Of a stretch of DNA of 64,000 bases, positions 2,971 through 57,217 are shown piece after piece (position 1 is the stretch's first letter; each line of letters begins with the position of its first letter). Where the stretch lies: contig NC_057724.1 in the NCBI RefSeq assembly GCF_004010195.1, positions 6,948,786 to 7,012,785 of the forward strand. The letters are read 5' to 3'. This stretch comes from Chiloscyllium plagiosum. Lineage: Eukaryota. A program made the translations under genes and the position numbers. The notes beneath the pieces are model-generated. The model was not told where the DNA came from. It made no database searches and was given only the letters and a program-made list of their open reading frames with translations.

Positions 2971-5970
2971 TTTGCACTTTTTTGTTAACCAACTGTTCAA
3001 CTGATAGAGATTCAGATTTCTAGGCTTTTGACTGAAAAACCAACTTTTCACCATCCCCTAATATCAAAGTTATTTTGGATCCTAGAGACTTTCTAAGACA
3101 GATACAAGATGCCTTTCCTCAAGGATGGAGTTTATTAACTACTCGGTCTTACTTTTCTAAGAGGGTTCTTGCACACACCCGAACATTGTTATTCGCCATC
3201 ACTGAATCTCTCGTGTATTTTTTTCAACTATTAACCTCAACCAATAAATCATTCATGTTTTCCAACTGATCAATTTACATAGAAAGACCATTTGTGCAAT
3301 TTGGATCATCAAAGAGGGAGCGGGCCTAAATCAGAATGGATTTGAAGGGGATACGTAAACTCCCTTCTGAGGACCACATGGAAGGAAAATGAAAGAAGAT
3401 TTTGACCCACTTATTTATCACCTGAACCATTGGGAGCAGAGCATTTTTCACTTGAGCTATTTTCTAATTGACTTTCAGAGATGTCATTACACCCCTCTGG
3501 AGCAGGAAGGACTTGAACCCAATCCTCTGAAGACCCCTATCATTTTCCATTTTAAACAGCTCCGTTGAACGAGTACCAAGAGCCATCTTTAAAAAGGGAT
3601 GTTGGGCTCCAGGTGAAGCTGACAAGTAAGGTCACCGGTGGCCAGCAGTACTAACTGTCCTTGTATGGCCAGGGGGAGTAGGAGTTTTGCACTGAATCCT
3701 ACAAGGGAGGCTTCCAAATCATGTGATTCCCCAGGGAGTGTGTACAGCATGCAATATACCCTCAACTGTTGTCAGCAGGCAACACCACCACTGTGCGATT
3801 TTCCTTCATTTGTGACCAAAATAGATCAGATTTTAATGAGCTTTTTTCTCCCCTTCTTTCTTGGATTGTGGGTCTTTCTGGCAATTTGCTGTACATCTCT
3901 AATTCAGCTATCTTCAGAGGACAGTTAAGAACCAAGTTGCTGTGTATCTGGATTAACGTACCAGCTAGACTAGGTAAGAGGGACAGGATTTACTTTTCTG
4001 TACAAGTCATTAGTATGCACACTGAGGACAGTTTTACACTCTGGCTTTTATGAATTGAACTGAAATTCCATTGGCTGCTATAAACTTTGTTTCCAGACCA
4101 TAAACCCATGGATTGTAAATCCTATAATGCCACTTTCCCTGTATTTGCATGTCTCTTATTGCAGAAGTGATTTGATGTATCGGGATTTCTTGGTATGGAT
4201 GTAATTGTCCAGGAAGCAGGGTCAACGCCCTGAGGCATCTTTTCTGATCTTGATTTCAGCAAGGGCGGATAATGGTGTTTTCATGGAGAGGCCACAGTTT
4301 AATGGCTATGGGCTCACCTTCCCACAGTCCTCTGTCTCAAATCATGTGATGCCTATGGAAGGTACCAGCAGATAATCAGAAATTCTGTATCAGCAGGAGA
4401 GCAACTCATGTTGTCTTGAAAAATGTGAGAACCATTGTTTTTAGGTAAGGCTAAGAGTATTGGTGGTTTTATCTGGGTCTGGAAGTGTTAATACTGACGA
4501 TTGTCATAAGCATTACCTAAATGATGATATTATATGGTCTCATGGGTGGAACAGTTTAGGATCCTGAGGGAGTGAGACCAATCATCTAAATCCTTCCTAA
4601 AGTATCTGTAACAACATCTATTATATCAGTGTAATCTGTAATGAGTTGTTAATGTGAAATAAACTATAGCTTGTTAATTACAAGAGACTCTTCTAATTAG
4701 ATCAGGAAATTATTATTTTTGTCTCTACTACACAAGACAAACATTCTCTGCGGTTTCTGATATTTAAGAAAGATGGTGGCACGCAGTTTCAGCAACTCAT
4801 ATGGCATGCTGAGCTGGCATGTCAATAAAGCATTGTGGCGGTGGTGTGGGTTTGTGTTCACTGCTCATACTACAAATGGTGAGCAGTGTGGTGAGATCTT
4901 CAGACTCATCTTGAAGCCACCTGCTCAGACAGTATGACAATTAACTCGTCATTCCAGAGTCACTTGAGCAAGTTGTCCGAGGGAAGCAGGGAATTACCAA
5001 GTGCAGAATCAGACCTCAGTCATAGGTGTGGTGACCCAGGCAGTGCATTCCAGATCACCATCAACCACTGCGTGGAAGATTTTCCTCAAATCCTCTTGAA
5101 ATCTCCTGCCTTTCATTTTAATATTACACCCACTTCTTATTGACCCTTTGAATAAGGGTTAACAAAAACTCATTGGCGCCTCCTATTCCTATTTAACAGG
5201 TTCGAGCAATTGAATGGCTTCCTCCTGTTTCTCTAGAACAGGATTGAGAGGTTGAACAATCTCCTTTACGTAAAATAAAAATTCATGGATTAGGGGCATT
5301 ACTAATAAGGATGTCTTAGTTATAATTGCATAACTGCTCTTCATAAGGTGGTGGTGAGCTGCAGTCTATCCGGTGCTATTGGGAAGGGGTTCCAAGATTT
5401 TGACACAGCAACAGTGCGGAAATGCTGATATACTTTCAATTCATAATGGTATATGGCTGGGAGATGAACGTGCAAGTGCAGGTGTTTCAATACATCTGTT
5501 ATCCAGGAGGTTTGATTCACAGGTTTGGAAAGTACTGTCACAAAAATCTTGATAAGTGATTGCAGCCCATTGTGTGTCTGGTACACTTTGTTGGAGCTAT
5601 ACATCAGCGATGGAAGTGAATGTTTCCATTGATGGATGGAGTCTTGAGCAAATGGACTGCTTTGCCCTGGATAATGCTAGGTATTTTCTGAGTGTTGTTA
5701 GAGCTACAGTCACTTAAGCAAGTCAAAAATATTCCATCACACTCCCGATTTGTGCTTAATAGATAGTGGATAAGCTTTGGGGAGTCAATAGGTGAAATTA
5801 CTCAGTGCAGAACTCCCAGCCTCTGATTTGTTCTTGTAACATCACTATTTAAATGGCTGGTCTCAGTTTGGTTTCTAGGAGAAAGTGAGGACTGCAGATG
5901 CTGGAGATCAGAGCTGAAAATGTGTTGCTGGAAAAGCGCAGCAGGTCAGGCAGCATCCAGGGAACAGGAT

Positions 5971-6006
5971 AATCGACGTTTCGGGCATAAGCCCTTCTTC
6001 AGGAAT
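5971..6006 (-). ncRNA. Minimal type I hammerhead ribozyme motif (PLE family A)
   Basis: Reverse complement reads auuc-CUGAAGA-A-GGGC-UUAU-GCCC-GAAAC-GUC-gauu. Confidence 0.75.
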
Positions 6007-6162
6007 CAGCATGGAAACAGACCCTTTGGTCCAAATCATCCATACCAACCAGATATCTTAAAATAATCTCGTCCCATTTGCCAGGATTTGGCCCATATCC
6101 CTCTTAACCTTTCCCATTTATGCCCATCCAGATGCTTTTTAAAATGTTGTACTTGTACCAGC

Positions 6163-6197
6163 CTCCTGAAGAAGGGCTTATGCCCGAAACGTCGATT
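6163..6197 (+). ncRNA. Minimal type I hammerhead ribozyme motif (PLE family A)
   Basis: CUGAAGA-A-GGGC-UUAU-GCCC-GAAAC-GUC. Confidence 0.75.
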
Positions 6198-6577
6198 CTA
6201 CTGTTCCTTGGATGCTGCCTGACCTGCTGCGCTTTTCCAGCACATTTTCAGCTCAGTTTGGTTTCTCGTCAACATTAGCCCCAGAGTGTTGATAGTGGAA
6301 GATTCTTTGATGTTAAAGCCACTGAATGTTGAGGGATGATGTTTGGAAAATCTCTTGTCAGAGATGGTAATTACTTAGTACTTCAATGTTACTTGGTACT
6401 TTTCAGCGCAAACCTGGGTTTTGTCCAGGGCTATGTTGCATTTGGACATGGACTGCTTCACTGTCTAAGGAATCACAAATGCTGCTGGTTATTGCACAGT
6501 TGTGAACATCCCCACTCTGACCTTATGATGGAAGGAAACAGCTGAAGATGATTGGGCACAAGACTTTATCTTCAGGA

Positions 6578-6700
6578 CCACGGGGCTTTTGTGGTGCTGT
6601 GGTAGTGTCTCTATCTCTGGGCCAGGAGACCCAGATTAAAGTCCCACCTGTTCCAAAATTATGTAGTAATATCTCTGAGCAGGTTGATTAGGAAAACATC
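6578..6700 (+). mobile_element. tRNA-derived SINE head of a second SINE family; related copies at about 3478-3530(-), 11555-11670(-), 50255-50360(+), 60950-61080(+)
   Basis: A-box-like TGGTGCTGTGGT and a degenerate B-box; similar motif order in the other copies. Confidence 0.5.
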
Positions 6701-6750
6701 TACCTTAAGGAAGTCCTGCAGTGATTGTCTGAAATTGTGTTGATTGACAT

Positions 6751-6966
6751 GTGTGTGGAACGAGCTGCCAGAGGTAGTGATGGAGGCTGGTACAAGTGCA
6801 ACATTTTAAAAAGCATCTGGATGGGCATAAATAGGAAGGGTTAAGAGGGATATGGGCCAAATCCTGGCAAATGGGACGAGATTATTTTAAGATATCTGGT
6901 CGGCATGGATGATTTGGACCAAAGGATCTGTTTCCATGCTGTGCATCTCTACGACTCTGACTCTAT
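6751..6966 (+). mobile_element. CR1/HER1 LINE 3' end fragment
   Basis: WNELPEVV..AGT..FK.HLD coding end, 3' UTR and GACTCT-type tail. Confidence 0.85.
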
Positions 6967-7225
6967 AACCTCAACCATACCCATTTCTACTAATAATGAC
7001 TCTAACCAATGAAAAGCTTATCCCAACTCCCAATGACTTGGTTTGCTCATGTCCCTTGATAACACACTTGACCAAATGCTGCCTTGGTATCAGGAGCAGT
7101 CTCTCACCATGCCTCTTCCAGTTCAAAGTTCATATTTGGTTCAAGGCTGTTGGTATGAAGAAGCTTGATAGTTATGAATCATTGGAGCATTTAAATATTG
7201 AAGGTCTGTGTGGAAATGAATTTAT

Positions 7226-7315
7226 TGCAAGTTTGCTATACCTAGCACATAATTTCTTTAAAAGTGGTCATGCAAGTTTGCTATACCTAGCACATAATTT
7301 CTTTAAAAGTGGTCA
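7226..7315 (+). repeat. Perfect 45-bp tandem duplication
   Basis: TGCAAGTTTGCTATACCTAGCACATAATTTCTTTAAAAGTGGTCA at 7226-7270 and 7271-7315. Confidence 0.95.
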
Positions 7316-16159: not shown

Positions 16160-17890
16160 ATAGAACATAGAACATAGAAGAATATAACGCAGTACAGGCC
16201 CTTTGGCCCTCGATGTTGCGCCGATCCAAGCCCACCTAACCTAAACTAGCCCACTATCCTCCATATGCCTATCCAATGCCCGCTTAAATGCACATAAAGA
16301 GGGAGAGTCCACCACTGCTACTGGCAGGGCATTCCATGAACTCACGACTCGCTGAGTAAAGAACCTACCCCTAACATCTGTCCCATACCTACTACCCCTT
16401 AATTTAAAGCTATGCCCCCTCGTAATAGCTGACTCCATACGTGGAAAAAGATTCTCACTGTCGACCCTATCTAAACCCCTAATCATCTTATACACCTCTA
16501 TCAAGTCACCCCTAAACCTTCCTTTCTCCAATGAAAACAACCCCAAGTGCCTCAACCTTTCCTCATACGATCTTNNNNNNNNNNNNNNNNNNNNNNNNNN
16601 NNNNNNNNNNNNNNNNNNNNNNNNNNNNNNNNNNNNNNNNNNNNNNNNNNNNNNNNNNNNNNNNNNACTTGGGTGGCAACTTTCAGAGATCTGTGTACAT
16701 GGACACCAAGATCCCTCTGCTCATCCACACTACCAAGTATCCGACAATTAGCCCAGTACCCATTCTTTTTGTTATTCTTCCCAAAGTGAATCACCTCGCA
16801 CTTAGCTACATTGTATTCCATCTGCCACCTTTCTGCCCAGCTCTGCAGCTTCTCTTTATCCTGCTGTAACCTGCCACATGCTTCCTCACTGTCAACAACT
16901 CCTCCGACTTTTGTGTCATCCGCAAACTTGCTCACCCAACCTTCTAACTCCTCTTCCAGGTCATTTATAAAAATGACAAACAGCAATGGTCCCAAAACAG
17001 ATCCTTGCGGAACACCGCTAGTGACGGCACTCCATGAAGAAACTTTGCCATCAACTACTACCCTCTGTCTTCTTCCATCCAGCCAATTCCTAATCCAAAC
17101 CTCCAACTCACCCTCAATGCCATATCTCCGTATTTTCTGCAGTAGCCTACCATGGGGAACCTTATCGAACGCCTTACTAAAATCCATATATACCACATCT
17201 GCCGCTTTCCCCTCATCAACCTCCTTCGTCACCTTTTCAAAGAATTCAATAAGGTTTGTGAGGCACGACCTGCCCTTCACAAAACCATGCTGACTATCCT
17301 TGATCACATTATTCCTATCCAGATGTTCATAAATCCTATGCCTTACAATTCTCTCTAAGATTTTGCCCACAACAGAAGTGTGACTCACCGGCCTATAGTT
17401 ATTAGGGTTATCCCTACTCCCCTTCTTGAACAAGGGAACCACATTTGCTCGCCTCCAATCTTCTGGCACTACTCCTGTAGACAACGAGGACATAAAAATC
17501 AAGGCCATTGGCTCTGCAATCTCCTCCCTTGCTTCCCAGAGAATCCTAGGATAATTGCCATCAGGCCCAGGTGACTTATCTATTTTCACCCTTTCCAGAA
17601 TTTCGAACACCTCTTCTCTACATACCTCAACGCCATCCATTCTGCTTAATTGTGACTCAGTATTCACATCCGCAACAATGTCCTGTTCCTGAGTGAATAC
17701 TGACGAAAATTATTCATTCAGTGTCTCCCCAATCTCTTCAGCCTCCACACGCAACTTCCCACTACTATTCTTGACTGGACCTATTCCTACCCTAGTCATT
17801 CTTTTATTCCTGACATACCTATAGAAAGCCTTAGGGTTTTCCCTAATCCTACCAACTAAGGACCTTTCATGTCCCCTCCTTGCTGCTCTT
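16160..17890 (-). mobile_element. Young 5'-truncated CR1 LINE nested in the L1
   Basis: Long open RT frame (16552-17667: KSPGPDG, NYRPVS, QHGF, YMDFSKAFD, GVPQGSVLGP, KFADDTK); CpGs retained; (TAGAACA)n reverse tail at about 16161-16180. Confidence 0.95.
16575..16666. other. Assembly gap (N run) inside the young CR1
   Basis: Run of Ns; both flanks are CR1 ORF2. Confidence 0.99.
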
Positions 17891-20800
17891 ATCTCTGATC
17901 ACGCAGCAGTATATTCGGAGGTTAAAGCCAAGAGTGAAGGGCTAGGTTTGCGGCGCTGGCATTTGGACCCTTTTCTCCTTCAGGATTCCAAATTTGTGGA
18001 ATACGTTTTGAAGGAGCTTCAGGAATTCTTGACTATCAACTCAGGCACGGCTAGTAGTCCATCTATGCTATGGGAGACTGCTAAGGCCTTTGCTAGAGGA
18101 TTAGCTATTCCCTATTCGGCCAGTTGGAAATGACAGAAGGAGGAACAGTAGCGTCTACTGCGCAGAGGCGGCACATTTTGTGCGGCCTTCGATGACTAAG
18201 CTACAACGGATCACGGCCCTTCGGGCTGCCTTGAATTCAATCCTGACACAAAACGCAAAGAAAGAACTTGCTTTTACTCAACAAAGGAAGTTCGAATATG
18301 GGGATAGGCCAGGGAACTATTTAGCCAACCTGACTAGGAAAAAGCATGCTCCCCAATCCATTACTGCAATCAGAGACAGTGCCGGGGTCCTTACATACGA
18401 TGCTAAAAAGATTAATGAGGCTTTTCGGAACTTTTACTCTGAACTGTATCGCTCTGAAGGTTGCGAAGACAGGAGGGCTAAAATGGAGACCGTTTTTAAG
18501 AACCAGGACCTCCCAGGAGTAACCTTGGAACAGGCCTCTCTCCTTATTGCTCCCTTGCCAGTTCAGGAAATACAGGAGGCAGCTGGGCAACTTTAGAGTG
18601 GGAAAGCGCCTGGCCCTGATGGTCTCCCGGGTGAGTTTTATAAGGAGTTTATAGGGATTCCTATATGCATGAATGCCTCACATCATCTTTGAGAGAAGCT
18701 AATATTTCCTTAATTCTTAAGAAGGGGAAGGTTCCTGAGGATTGTGCCTCATACAGGCCCATCTCTCTATTAAATTCAGATTTCAAAATTCTATCCAAGA
18801 TCCTGGTGCTGAGATTGGAAAGGGTGTTGCCCCATATTATTAAAGAGGACCATTCAGGCTTTATAAGGGGCTGTAGGTCATCTAATAATATTAGAAGTTT
18901 GCTGAATATGGTCCAAGTTTGTCAGCAACGATCGAATCAGGGATTGGTGATTTCCTTAGATGCAGAGAAAGCATTTGACCGGGTGGAATCACCATACTTT
19001 TTTTATGTCTCAGAACAGTTTGGGTTGGGTGGAGTCTTTACTAGGTGGGTGGAGGTTTTATATCGCCACTCTCTGGCCGTAGTCATCACCAACGGGGTGA
19101 AGTCAGGGAATTTTACGATTGTTAGGGGTAGTTGGCAAAGCTGCCCCCTCTCACCGTTGTTGTTTACGTTGGTGATAGAGCCTCTGACAGAGGCCATTCA
19201 TCAGAACATCCACATAACCGCTCCGGAAGTGGTTACATTGTACGCGGATGATGTTCTTCTGTTTTTATCGAACCCGATGACCTCCATATCCCGTTTGATA
19301 CAATGTATCAATTCATTTGGGGCTATTTCAGGATATAAGATCAACTTTGCAAAATTGGAGGCAATGCCTTTGGGGAACCTTAAGGATGTGCCAGAAGTTG
19401 AAGGTGGCCCTAAGTTCCCTTTTAAGTGGTCACGGGCAGAGTTCTGATACCTAGGCATTTTTATTACCCCCAAAGTTTGATCTGTTATTTCGGACTAACT
19501 TTGGTTATTTGCTCGACAATATTAGGCGAGATCTCCAGACATGGGAGCCTCTTCCAATTTCATGGCTGGGCCGAATATCTCTCATTAAAATGAATGCTCT
19601 TCCTCGTTTGCTTTATCCCATGCGTGTGCTCCCTATAATGTTTCCAAGGTCAACGCTGCAGAAGCTTATGGGGTGGTTTGGTTCTGTCGTCTGGCATCGT
19701 GGGCGGACCCTCATCAAACTTACTAAATTGCAGTTGCCTCAAGGAGAGGGAGAAGTTGATTTCTCAGACATCAGAAGGTATCAATTGAGTTCCCTGCTGT
19801 CCTTTGTCTGTGATTGAGTAGGTAACGATCTAAACTCAATATGGCTGGATATTGAGGCCTCCCAGGCCAAGTGCCCTCTTATTAACCTGTTGTTCATGGA
19901 TAAGATGAGGACAGTTATGGACCACTGCCGGAACCCCATTGTCATTAGTACAGTCAAGACATGGAGGGCGATGCGTCAGAGTGAGGGTTGTTTATCCAAG
20001 ACTTCGCCACTCAGTCCCATAGTTGGCATGCCAGGGTTCTGACCAGGAATGATGGACTCAGGGTTCCAACTATGGGCAGCGAGAGGAGTTTCTAGTTTGG
20101 GAGACTTGTTTGAAGGGGAGGTTATGATGTCTTTTGAGCAACTGAGCCGCAAATTCGGGTTGCCCAGCAGAGACCTTTTCCGTTTTTTTCAGGTTAGGGA
20201 TTTCATCCGGAAGAAGACTATGCTTCTCACTAAGCCTCCGATACAGAGAGGCTGTTGCTACGTTCCACAAGCACCCTTTCGGTTAGTGCCCTCTGGCCTG
20301 CTGGGTAGCAGGGCCTGGCAGGATATTAACCGGTTATGTGAGGTATGGGAGCAAGAGCTGGGAGTGGAGATCTTTTCTGAAACATGGGACAACATATGGG
20401 AGAATACTCGAAAGATCTCAATCTGTACTAGGACATGTGCTACTCAGTTAAAAGTTCTGCACAGGGCTCATCTGGCACCAAACCGTCTGGCGAAGTTTAA
20501 AAGAGGGGCATCTTCAGTGTGCCCCAAATGTAAAATAAGTGTAAGTACTCTTACCCATTGCTTCTGGACAGGCCACAGGCTCCGTGTTTATTGGAGCGCT
20601 ATGGTGGGAGAGATAGGGAGGGTTTTGAGGGCTGAAGTCAAAGTAGACCCAATATCTCTCCTCTTAGGTCTACCGAATTTACCATCTTTAGACGTGCATG
20701 GGAAGAAACTATTTAATATTCTTGCATACTGTGCACGGAAGAATATTCTGATGAATTGGGTGTCTGAGAACCCGCCGGACTTGCTGGGATGGCAGAAATT

Positions 20801-27600: not shown

Positions 27601-28220
27601 TTTATTAGAATCACAAGATTACCGCACAGGAGAAGGTCATTTAGTCAGTTGTGTCCATGCCAACTCTGTGACAAAGCAACTCGACTATTCTCACTTCCCT
27701 GCCTATCCCCTGCAGTTCACCAAATTGATTTTTCATTTCAGGTGTTTATCTAAGCTTTCTTATTGAATCGGACTTCATCACACTCTCAGGTTGTATTTTC
27801 CTGATTCCAACCACTCACTCAATAAAAACATTTTCCTTCTGTTGGCTGTTGGTTCTTTTACCACTTACTTTAATATGAGGTGAAATGGACTGTGCTGGTG
27901 TCATTTAAATGTGTGAGGTATCAAGAAGCTCTAACAAAACTGGAGTTAATGGAAGTCACAGGATTGGAGTCATACCTAGCTCAAAGGAAGATGATTGTGG
28001 TTTTTGGAGGTAACTCACCTCAATCCCACCACTTCAAAAGCTTGGGCTCAACTATCTTCAGCAGCTTGGTCGATGACTTTCCCTCCCCCACAAAGGTAAA
28101 GGCTTCCTCAGCCCTATATCATATTCAGCAGAATTCACAAATCTCCAGATCCTAAAGCAATCCATGCCTAAATACGGCAAAACCTGGAGGTGCAAGCTTG
28201 GGCTGGTTCATAGCAAATAA

Positions 28221-28520
28221 GGAGGAGAAAGTGAGGTCTGCAGATGCTGGAGATCAAAGTTGAAACTTTATTGCTGTAACAGCACAGCAGGTCAGGCAGC
28301 ATCCAGGGAACAGGAAATTCGACGTTTCGGGCACAGGCCCTTCTTCAGGAACCGCCAAACCACAACAACCCGACGGTCGGTGGAGGAGCGTCTTATCTTC
28401 CGACTGGGAACCCTCCAACCGCAGGGGATGAACTTGGACCTCACCAGTTTCTTCATCCCCCCTCCCTGTTCCCTGGATGCTGCCTGACCTGCTGTGCTGT
28501 TCCAGCAATAAAGTTTCAAC
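28221..28520. mobile_element. Young fold-back PLE family A insertion with GIY-YIG C-terminal fragment
   Basis: 14-bp TSD TTCATAGCAAATAA at 28207-28220 and 28521-28534; inverted arms; middle encodes RRSVEERLIFRLGTLQPQGMNLD, typical of a PLE ORF end. Confidence 0.88.
28316..28352 (-). ncRNA. Minimal hammerhead ribozyme motif (PLE family A)
   Basis: Reverse complement reads uuc-CUGAAGA-A-GGGC-CUGU-GCCC-GAAAC-GUC-gaau. Confidence 0.78.
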
Positions 28521-29189
28521 TTCATAGCAAATAACATTTGTGTCGCACAAGTGCCAGGCATTTACCATTTCAAAGAAGAGAAATTCTCTAAGCTTCACTT
28601 CTCCAAAGGGAAAGGTCTTAGCTTCTCCAAACTGCCAATGTCACTGAAGCTGGAACCATTCTCAGTCAACCTGTTCTGCATTGTCTCTTCAGCCTTTACA
28701 TCTTTTCTAAACTGCAGTGCCCACCTCAAATGGTCCATTTCAAAACATTGTTTCAACTAATTCTAACTGCCACTTTCAATGATAAATGCACAATTAACCC
28801 CAGCTCTCTGTTCATGCATACCCTTTAGAATAGTACCCTTTAATTTAATTTCATTTGTCACTTATCCACCTATTCCATCAGCCCATTTGTCCCTTTGAAG
28901 TATCACTCTTACCCTCAAAATTTACAATTCTTCCAAGTGTAGTGCCACCTTCAAATTTTCAAGTCTAGATCATTAAAATATATCAAGAAAAGCAGTGATC
29001 CGTGTTTCAATCTCTGGAGAAGCCCATTTTATACCTTCCTTCCAACCAAAAGCAACAATTCACTACTATTCTCTTATTAGCTGCCATTCAACCAATCAAT
29101 GATGTTAATGTCTTTGGTTATTCCATAGACTTCAGCTTTGTTGACATCAGAAAAGTGACTACACTTCATTGACTCTAACATTTGGTTAA

Positions 29190-56485: not shown

Positions 56486-56546
56486 CTTCAAGGATGTTGG
56501 AATCATTTGCAGGGTAGTGAAATCTCAAGCCTTTCACATAGATGAG

Positions 56547-56688
56547 GAGAAAGTGAGGTCTGCAGATGCTGGAGATCAAAGTTGAAACTTTATTGCTGGA
56601 ACAGCACAGCAGGTCAGGCAGCATCCAGGGAACAGGAGATTCGACGTTTCGGGCACAGGCCCTTCTTCAGGAAGGGCCTGTGCCCGAA
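56547..56688. mobile_element. Young minimal fold-back PLE family A insertion with hammerhead (56640-56672, minus)
   Basis: TSD ACATAGATGAG at 56536-56546 and 56689-56699. Perfect 20-bp inverted repeat at 56646-56665 and 56671-56690. The left arm differs from 28224-28352 at 2 positions. Confidence 0.88.
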
Positions 56689-57217
56689 ACATAGATGAGC
56701 CAACAGCTACTCAGTACAACCACTGAAAGGCTTTTCAGTATGTCGGCTTCAGTAATTAATGATTCTGCTCTCAGCTTGTTGACTCTGATGAATTCCACAG
56801 AGCTGGGAAAATTCATGTGGTGTTGGTCAGCCTGGGCTGTCGGTGCTAATTCCTCCAATTCTTTCCATTCATTCCTAGGATGTGGGTGTTGCTGGCTGAG
56901 CCAGTATTCATTTACTCATTTCCAAAGTTCCATTGTTTTTTACACACCAGGGCTTGAAACATTTCTGTGAAAGAATGCTTCAGCATCAGTGTGTCACCCA
57001 TGCTGGTTACAGATATTTTTCAATCAACTTGTTAACTTCTCAAGGTAACTGGGGTGTGAGGAATTAATGACAGCCCTGCCAACAACACCCCCATCCCAGA
57101 AATGATTGCTTTCAAGGTAATGTTCTTGCTTTTGAGTCTCCGTGGATACATGAGAGAGAAGGAATAGCAGGATATAGAAGGGAGCAGAGTGGGAAGAGGT
57201 AAGAGAGTCCCTTCAGT

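Follow-up and report, generated by a model that had tools for sequence, protein, structure and literature searches.

At positions 5862-6941 of the window (the 64,000-nucleotide stretch of Chiloscyllium plagiosum DNA analysed here), a fold-back insertion of a Penelope-like element carries between its two arms an inverted 160-bp copy of a CR1-type sequence that is still present 515 bp away. We confirmed that this observation is real. The locus is one of a class of local captures in the genome, and it is this class, not the single locus, that gives the finding its value. Comparison of the sequences suggests that the middle was probably copied from the neighbouring CR1 copy while the element was inserting.

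The unit is bounded by two copies of a target-site duplication (TSD), CTCAGTTTGGTTTCT, at 5862-5876 and 6252-6266, which are identical at 15/15 positions; the duplication may be 16-17 bp long if the allele of related species is used. The long arm (5877-6006, minus strand) is a copy of the Penelope pLTR running from the inferred RNA 5' end through a 'tail' of ~35 nt (5877-5910), which the arm-arm comparison places in this arm only. It is followed by the templated insertion (6007-6166, minus strand) and by the short arm (6164-6254, plus strand), an inverted pLTR copy without the tail whose final three bases overlap the TSD. The arms are 94-96% complementary, and each corresponds to a short pLTR that extends from just upstream of a hammerhead core to an RT start site. 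Minimal hammerhead motifs were read from the sequence at 5971-6006 on the minus strand (CUGAAGA core, 4-bp stem II, GAAACGUC; predicted cleavage between 5975 and 5974) and at 6164-6197 on the plus strand (predicted cleavage between 6193 and 6194). The donor segment (6782-6941, plus strand) has been kept in place within an old LINE 3' fragment (6751-6969, plus strand; 72-83% identical to other window copies), which we take to be of CR1 type. The same 3' end as in this fragment follows RT ORFs bearing a KFADDTK motif, and the 3' junction of the fragment is also found in organism C. The locus is a dead, probably neutral fossil.

An earlier note on this DNA had described the arm-middle-arm order between 15-bp TSDs, the inverted copying of 6782-6941 with about six mismatches, variants shared by middle and donor and lacking in three other CR1 copies, and a TCC microhomology at the right junction, and each of these descriptions held. 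Alignment of the middle with the reverse complement of the donor gave six mismatches (96% identity), all of them transitions, with changes falling on both copies, and the TCC (6164-6166) belongs both to the proximal end of the donor and to the short arm. Middle and donor have in common a 2-bp deletion, an extra T, CTCG and GGATT, which are absent from the five other CR1 copies in the window (68-82% identical to the middle) and from three of the closest genomic copies. In the genome search, where 40 of 4,716 candidates were scored, the best match was the donor at 96%, followed by one at 89%, and no second copy of the composite was seen; its recurrence at other loci had been named as evidence against the reading. 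Single contigs of the related species, organisms B and C, join 5877 to 6268, providing the empty site that the earlier note had suggested looking for, and locus-specific contigs of organism A carry the middle's own alleles. One contig of 53 bp, taken from a second study, extends over the right junction, falling short of the 31-letter bridging rule. No listed record spans the whole unit, and the raw reads, shallow and swamped by repeats, left the junctions unbridged. This gap, together with the fraction of candidates scored, is what could be said for an assembly artefact or for a young CR1 subfamily matching by chance. Such a reading has next to no probability and is largely refuted by the six transitions distributed over both copies, the common private indels, the middle-specific contigs from two studies, the empty site in relatives and 45 further loci with local donors.

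We identified the element through a related locus, L193, whose pLTR is 89% identical to the window arm over 76 nt and which contains a 448-aa frame with RT-like motifs (GxxMG and HIDD, read by eye). The frame matched the Pfam GIY-YIG model at E=1.7e-4, just under the curated cutoff; the fragment gave no match to RVT_1, and a search of the PDB found no relative of the protein. The linkage of a pLTR to an ORF with an RT plus a GIY-YIG domain at its C terminus suggests that the window element is an EN+ Penelope-like element, and from the domain order we take it to be of Poseidon type. The 82 clean events show the inverted pLTR copy, the 30-40 bp one-sided tail and the TSD of this group. Their architecture is uniform, with median arms of 126 and 89 nt, a median length difference of 37.5 nt and a TSD of 14-17 bp in 69/82. 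This stereotyped arrangement agrees with in vitro work on Poseidon, in which both strands are nicked and the RT starts at two sites (PMC11167929). A scan of 34 of the window's 93 ORFs yielded one LINE RT and otherwise no domain of a host gene.

The earlier note had proposed that fold-back insertions be scanned across the genome for nearby donors of their non-Penelope middles. Loci were picked by eye from listings, with flanks still unseen, using a search pattern that selected for intact arms, and a clean fold-back with >=50 non-Penelope bases in its middle was treated as a testable event (n=55). The scan was positive: a local donor was present for 46/55 middles, compared with 32/5,335 null pairs. 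Donors are retained in the genome, and the captured middles (51-284 nt, median 135) are 91-100% identical to them. Three of the 46 donors lie at the TSD or <=21 bp from it; the other 43 lie 151-2,393 bp away (median 454), and 39/44 fall at 150-1,000 bp, on both flanks. The 43 distant-donor events divide into 22 inverted and 21 direct copies, and into 22 on the long-arm side and 21 on the short-arm side. Donor distances are peaked and light-tailed, and were described better by a gamma or lognormal distribution (AIC 642) than by an exponential (649) or looping (658) model; neither a uniform law nor looping of the pure s^-1.5 form fitted as well. No nucleosome periodicity was seen in these distances (best p 0.35). 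Shorter inserts of 20-60 nt come from the same distances in 8/21 cases examined.

Captures make up ~0.5-1% of roughly 10,000 fold-backs, and a rate near 1% fits the absence of captures among 39 fold-back pairs in an unselected 1.02 Mb survey. Beyond the similarity usual among repeats, none of the 55 middles recurred at another tested locus. Four clean events (L043, L044, L115 and L161, the last with a middle just partly non-Penelope) had no close donor within ~15 kb, and for L115 no distant donor was found among 40 scored of 8,737 genome candidates. One candidate, L099, proved to be a false event, its middle being single-copy native DNA and its 'TSD' lying inside the element.

The time of copying was assessed from non-CpG divergence, which was 70/2,860 (2.4%) between arms and 113/5,979 (1.9%) between middle and donor (Fisher p=0.09, paired Wilcoxon p=0.70); the two divergences correlate (rho 0.33, p=0.03). 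The lack of a difference is consistent with copying at insertion, while the slightly greater divergence of the arms leaves room for some later events. An AAT terminus was kept in 75/164 arm ends and was followed by C in 40/74 non-G cases (p=5e-7 vs an assumed 27%), indicating that arm ends are often intact beside filler. Long inverted repeats are fragile, and a fold-back could have formed first, with its palindromic centre later breaking or stalling a fork and being repaired by a switch to a nearby DNA template. This fragility and the small excess of arm divergence are in keeping with later repair, which we nevertheless hold to be improbable, as the age difference is not significant, the ages correlate, and arm ends often keep the AAT or AATC that breakage and resection should erode, in a sample whose search pattern selected intact arms.

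We lean towards a fold-back whose central join holds DNA copied, here from 515 bp away, by host repair-type, DNA-templated synthesis during insertion. This account builds on the TSD, the long and short arms, the empty site of the relatives, a donor still present nearby and the recurrence of this anatomy at dozens of loci. The element endonuclease would nick both strands ~15 bp apart, and both 3' ends would prime reverse transcription of a short pLTR RNA from two start sites ~37 nt apart, giving the long and the short arm. Both cDNAs would extend as far as the 5' end of the RNA, a short way upstream of the hammerhead core, and many would gain a C opposite the cap. Because the two ends are identical in sequence, full annealing is not possible, and microhomology-mediated end joining would link them, in many cases with short fillers templated by the arms; such arm-derived fillers were common when a listing of unselected fold-backs was read by eye. 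In ~1% of events a cDNA end would prime, on 0-4 nt of microhomology, on DNA 150-2,400 bp off, using either strand of either flank in an intact duplex or the sister chromatid, and 50-280 nt would be copied before release and joining to the other end. The product would be a dead local inverted or direct repeat and not a mobile ribozyme cassette.

End joining by polymerase theta depends on POLQ and leaves templated fillers and microhomology at junctions. At the window locus the right junction has 3 bp of microhomology, and across the class a raw count gave microhomology of >=2 bp in 11 proximal and 12 distal cases among 46, with many fillers present. The proximal junction showed no excess of microhomology (17 vs 26 events, p=0.22), and flush junctions numbered 15 vs 24 of 44 (p=0.09). 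Snap-back in cis on resected tails was rejected as the sole route, given the even orientation and the lack of a proximal microhomology excess; the pieces in L096, an event that carries DNA from both flanks, sit on strands that resection would remove, which also counts against it. Against repair-type synthesis stand the length of the inserts (100-280 nt) and their origin hundreds of bases away, both large for polymerase-theta fillers, and the four clean events without a close donor. The copying enzyme may be the Penelope RT or a repair polymerase.

If the Penelope RT itself jumped from the RNA 5' end to nearby DNA and copied it before the ends were joined, nearly the same sequences would be predicted. 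We consider such a jump unlikely, though of some weight. Captures begin at or adjoining the inferred RNA 5' end, where a jump is expected, a tethered RT would account for the locality, and the R2 RT jumps between templates in vitro, according to the available text of that report (PMC11371274). On the other hand, template switching is not mentioned in the in vitro Poseidon paper (PMC11167929), and many junctions contain iterative arm-derived fillers of the end-joining kind. A still less probable route is the ligation of a single-stranded flank fragment or flap, or an Okazaki-size piece, between the cDNA ends, with the donor then refilled. It would yield all four geometries, the observed lengths of 51-284 nt and the peaked, light-tailed distances, middles without a donor could be moved pieces, and flap capture has been inferred for L1 in the part of the study available (PMC11702581). 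However, the donor is retained in 46/55 events, the 20-60 nt inserts from the same distances leave no sharp fragment-size peak, and L096 would require pieces of both strand classes.

Capture through RNA, either by an RT switch to a nascent host transcript or by uptake of the segment as a ribozyme-bounded RNA, has very little probability. The two solid pieces of L096 lie on the same strand, and the SINE and CR1 middles without donors could derive from RNA. Long nascent RNAs would not, however, confine donors to 150-1,000 bp on both sides (39/44), the hammerheads are on opposite strands with arms that cross the cleavage site, and no middle recurs at another tested locus. The suggestion of the earlier note that RT or repair machinery had switched to a local template is upheld as to copying from the neighbouring CR1 and not as to nascent RNA, the least likely of the templates.

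The further suggestion, that sequence had been captured between two self-cleaving ribozymes, was not borne out. With hammerheads on opposite strands, no transcript has both in sense, and since both arms run past the predicted cleavage site, reaching ~30 nt 5' of it, the RNAs that were copied had not been cleaved. Stem I of the right arm is cut to 2 bp by the captured DNA, as read from the sequence. Insertion by a Poseidon protein in vitro does not require hammerhead cleavage (PMC11167929), and the predicted ribozymes likely play no part in capture. Both arms contain a CUGANGA ... GAAA ... UH core, stem II, an unpaired base before stem II and a palindromic vestigial stem III, in agreement with the min-HHR description in the available text of PMC4209133, and copies vary mostly in loop II. 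The Rfam hammerhead models gave no match at the gathering score or at E up to 10; the only matches, to generic hairpin miRNA models, were far under the cutoff and were set aside. A modelled monomer folded without stems I and III (z about 0), and self-cleavage, if it occurs as predicted, is expected to need a dimer or help from a protein. Retrozymes are defined by two direct-orientation hammerheads on one strand bounding a re-copied unit; here the motifs are on opposite strands, and neither the scored matches nor the 55 middles include a second composite. The 160-bp inverted repeat could in principle form dsRNA.

Nearby genomic DNA is also copied into L1 insertions during integration. The available text of two reports gives 22 templated insertions vs 3,598 truncated solo L1s, a rate similar to ours, with templates that are shorter than ~250 bp and typically lie <=15 bp from the site, and proposes an SDSA-like switch (bioRxiv 10.1101/2024.08.27.596794; PMC11702581). 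Like these, the Penelope events place non-element sequence of 51-284 nt from a retained local donor inside the TSDs. They differ in the distance of the donors (151-2,393 bp in 43/46), in the position of the copy at the join of two overlapping inverted cDNAs, and in being germline where the L1 events are somatic. In Adineta vaga, unrelated host DNA lies between solo pLTRs inside TSDs, with head-to-head inverted pLTRs and a tail; as far as the available text goes, its donors were not traced to the neighbourhood and it was read as mobilised in trans via pLTR-bearing RNA (Arkhipova et al. 2013, PMC3846280), whereas the shark donors are local, retained and apparently copied as DNA. EN+ Penelope/Poseidon elements have the inverted 5'-truncated copy and a tail of 30-40 bp; their min-HHRs form pairs on opposite strands, separated by 100-700 bp, and they nick both strands and start reverse transcription at two sites. 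Local templated middles, the extra C and the sharp 5' stop go unmentioned in the available portions of those papers (PMC8557442; PMC4209133; PMC11167929). In R2 PRINT 'snap-back', the 3' end of a full-length cDNA primes extra synthesis before the junction forms, with itself or, more rarely, target DNA close by as the template (PMC11371274, from the text available). That system has one cDNA, a fixed rDNA site and, by definition, opposite-strand copies, in contrast to the two cDNAs and equally common direct and inverted copies of Penelope. The distant donors and the population-wide test appear new relative to the L1 and rotifer cases.

How Penelope integration finishes and how inverted structures arise have been stated to be open questions (PMC11167929 and the available text of PMC8557442). 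With these captures, the central join stands out as two free ends prone to repair, and host sequence between pLTRs gains a DNA-based alternative explanation. Only tentatively do we suggest that the identical cDNA ends of a two-ended intermediate search chromatin 0.15-2.5 kb off and copy it as DNA. If this is true, host sequence between pLTRs would reflect DNA-templated copying at the join and not RNA transduction, perhaps extending to puzzling intron-retaining gene copies, and the thousands of fold-backs would form a natural archive of end repair in the germline, with a characteristic reach of ~450 bp. For the in vitro system the captures themselves predict a rate of ~1%, copying from 150-2,400 bp away without strand bias, and the extra C. 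A second Penelope-like family gave 1,158 fold-back matches, and among 15 of its loci examined at +/-1.5 kb a local match was present in one, L258, as a partial match of 33 bp.

The fold-back in the window is flanked as a whole by a 15-bp direct repeat (5862-5876 and 6252-6266), within which lie a long arm on the minus strand (5877-6006), a 160-bp middle (6007-6166) and a short arm on the plus strand (6164-6254). This composite, which the earlier note had described with about six mismatches between the middle and a nearby donor, was borne out by alignment: the middle matches the CR1 fragment at 6782-6941 in reverse complement, with 6 mismatches, all transitions. Substitutions since copying, judged against other copies, were assigned to both middle and donor, some on each, which is the pattern expected for two real copies diverging separately. 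Variants claimed to be private to the pair (a 2-bp deletion, an extra T and several substitutions) were indeed missing from 8 other aligned copies, and the identity of other window CR1 copies to the middle was 68-82%. A search of the genome (G000, 3.56 Gb, where the window is C15:6948786-7012785) also returned the proposed donor as the best match, at 96% compared to 89% for the next, among the 40 scored of 4,716 candidates. The window observation is real, and the locus by itself is an ordinary fossil.

The empty site sought in relatives was found. Single contigs from run X5 (organism B) and from runs X6 and X11 (organism C) joined 5877 directly to 6268, indicating that the whole unit is missing in these related species. 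Organism C carries the 3' junction of the donor CR1, and the donor therefore predates the insertion. Contigs from organism A were identical to 6028-6093 and 6137-6189 and bore middle-specific alleles; the latter, from a separate study, extends over the right junction by fewer than 31 letters to either side, and no record among those listed covered the entire unit. An exact 45-bp tandem duplication lies at 7226-7315, and since alignment of the organism B and C contigs ends inside it, at 7271, it is probably lineage-specific.

Across three length bins, the search for fold-backs with both arms ending near the hammerhead core matched 37, 62 and 79 sites, of which 37, 50 and 50 were listed. We analysed 115 events, 98 with ~10 kb of context, picked by eye for middles of non-Penelope appearance before their flanks were seen, and 17 with ~3 kb. 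Setting aside 33 events with no clean TSD or arm pair left 82 clean events, 55 of them testable, with 10 kb of context and a middle containing 50 or more non-Penelope bases. A local donor, defined by at least 90% identity covering at least half of the non-Penelope bases in the middle, was present in 46 of the 55, compared to 32 of 5,335 null pairs of a middle with another locus, a positive result for the genome-wide scan that the earlier note proposed. Three of the 46 donors abut the TSD or come very close to it. For the remaining 43 the distance is 151-2,393 bp, with a median of 454; 22 of these copies are inverted and 21 direct, and the donor is on the side of the long arm in 22 and of the short arm in 21. 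Copied middles were 51-284 nt long, and short middles were alike, with local matches of 20-60 nt, ~170-2,400 bp away, in 8 of 21 examined. The 54 observed cases put the capture rate at no less than 0.5% of fold-backs; allowing for loci that were unlisted or filtered out, we estimate that it may be ~1%. An unselected survey of 1.02 Mb yielded 0 captures in 39 fold-back pairs.

Among the nine negatives, L048 had a local donor at 88%, the captured local copy in L155 was interrupted by a SINE, itself intact, that probably inserted afterwards, and the middle of L114 was partly local. L099 was a false event. No close donor was found within ~15 kb for L043, L044, L115 or L161; the follow-up covered all of the negatives but L152. 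The clean fold-backs L044, L115, L043 and L237 have SINE, CR1 or unique middles of 165-476 bp with no close donor in the context examined, possibly from moved or distant templates. At L055, L066, L068, L073, L105, L110, L135 and L242 the middle repeats TSD-adjacent flank, often with an additional arm, and would reflect either templating from adjacent DNA, as in L1, or more than one insertion at the same site. ORF-derived middles recur with an identical 171-bp span (G000 C1:30900858, C1:36379209, C1:96614843, C2:39033422, C2:39034552, C3:53687491 and C3:78653429), which points to a hotspot for junctions or to a composite that was itself re-copied; no re-copied composite of captured middles was found among scored genome matches or the 55 testable middles.

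The window arms are members of an endonuclease-bearing Penelope-like family. Another locus in the genome, L193, contains a 448-aa frame in which RT-like motifs are accompanied by a GIY-YIG match that falls just short of the cutoff (E 1.7e-4), and the adjoining pLTR shares 89% identity with the window arm over 76 nt. Fold-backs are an ordinary product of this family, with 10,178 exact-word matches at gaps up to 458 nt (nested matches may count twice). Clean events had TSDs of mostly 14-17 bp and median arms of 126 and 89 nt, in agreement with Poseidon protein in vitro, where both strands are nicked and extended and two RNA start sites bound the 'tail' (PMC11167929). In 39 of 43 events the two arms carried an identical loop-II variant, indicating one source for both. 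Two further TSD-bounded fold-backs of the family occur at 28211-28533 and 56534-56707; one of the two is minimal, and in the other the middle is the 3' end of an ORF. A second hammerhead-bearing family (L244-L258) also forms fold-backs (1,158 matches, 70-300 nt gaps), and a few of its middles look non-element.

Arms very frequently end at ATTCC, immediately 5' of the hammerhead core, a sequence which we take to resemble an initiator. Of the 74 cases across clean events in which the base after an AAT arm end was not G, 40 had C (the search pattern left out G). From these two features we infer a putative transcription start and copied cap; the excess of C suggests a capped short pLTR transcript that would start just upstream of the core and be copied uncleaved. 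L1 copies the cap G, on which our literature search gave no report.

Both window arms contain the minimal hammerhead core of PLE pLTRs, as given in PMC4209133, which reports hammerhead pairs on opposite strands, 100-700 bp apart; an Rfam search did not recognise the motif. The suggestion of capture between two self-cleaving ribozymes failed. In the window fold-back each strand bears one of the two motifs, the predicted cleavage site was copied into both cDNAs, stem I of the right-hand motif is shortened by the captured DNA, and Penelope insertion in vitro does not need hammerhead cleavage (PMC11167929), so that the ribozymes are likely passengers.

Outside CpG sites, the arms differ from each other by 2.4% and the middle from its donor by 1.9%; these two values correlate and are not significantly different. 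Such equal, correlated divergence, together with intact arm ends, favours copying of the middle at the time of insertion, and to this extent the earlier note stands; its choice between reverse transcriptase and repair machinery is hard to settle by sequence. Since the sequences of the two cDNAs are the same, full pairing between them is impossible, and the central join of their ends would have to be made by end joining. Short arm-derived fillers were frequent in unselected joins (read by eye). The window locus, an inverted copy with TCC at its proximal end, agrees with cis snap-back on resected tails. However, the population of events does not support this as the only route, and at L096 (4700-5200) the middle comes from both flanks (+1.8 kb, -0.85 kb and a weak 20-bp piece), all inverted and in crossed order. 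The even geometry is best matched by priming on an intact duplex or sister chromatid, on which a cDNA end would be extended. The donor distance distribution is peaked, and not exponential, uniform or s^-1.5; no periodicity was found in it. Synthesis of the middle by a host polymerase has a slightly better than even chance, a jump of the Penelope RT onto nearby DNA is unlikely, and supply of the middle by flap capture is quite improbable; sequence alone separates the three poorly.

Templated insertion is already known; what appears new is distant, unbiased donors at a two-cDNA join. For L1, 22 templated insertions of <250 bp are described whose templates typically lie no more than 15 bp from the insertion point (bioRxiv 2024.08.27.596794), and three others (PMC11702581), in apparent contrast to the distant Penelope donors; Supplementary Fig. 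4d and Fig. S10 bear on this distinctness. R2 cDNA ends snap back onto themselves or nearby rDNA (PMC11371274). Unrelated sequence between solo pLTRs within TSDs was reported by Arkhipova et al. 2013 (PMC3846280), in the available part of which local donors were not traced, whereas here they were. A literature search, with most subscription papers outside its reach, returned no Penelope-specific report of local templated middles. The class offers a useful way into a step of Penelope integration that is still open.

Middle and donor form a 160-bp inverted repeat, 615 nt apart, whose predicted fold beats pairing of the arms; dsRNA from it is hypothetical. No host domain was found in the 34 of 93 window ORFs scanned. 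Elsewhere in the window, a run of 92 N bases lies at 16575-16666 and a LINE reverse-transcriptase fragment (Pfam RVT_1, E 9e-31) at 18644-19444.
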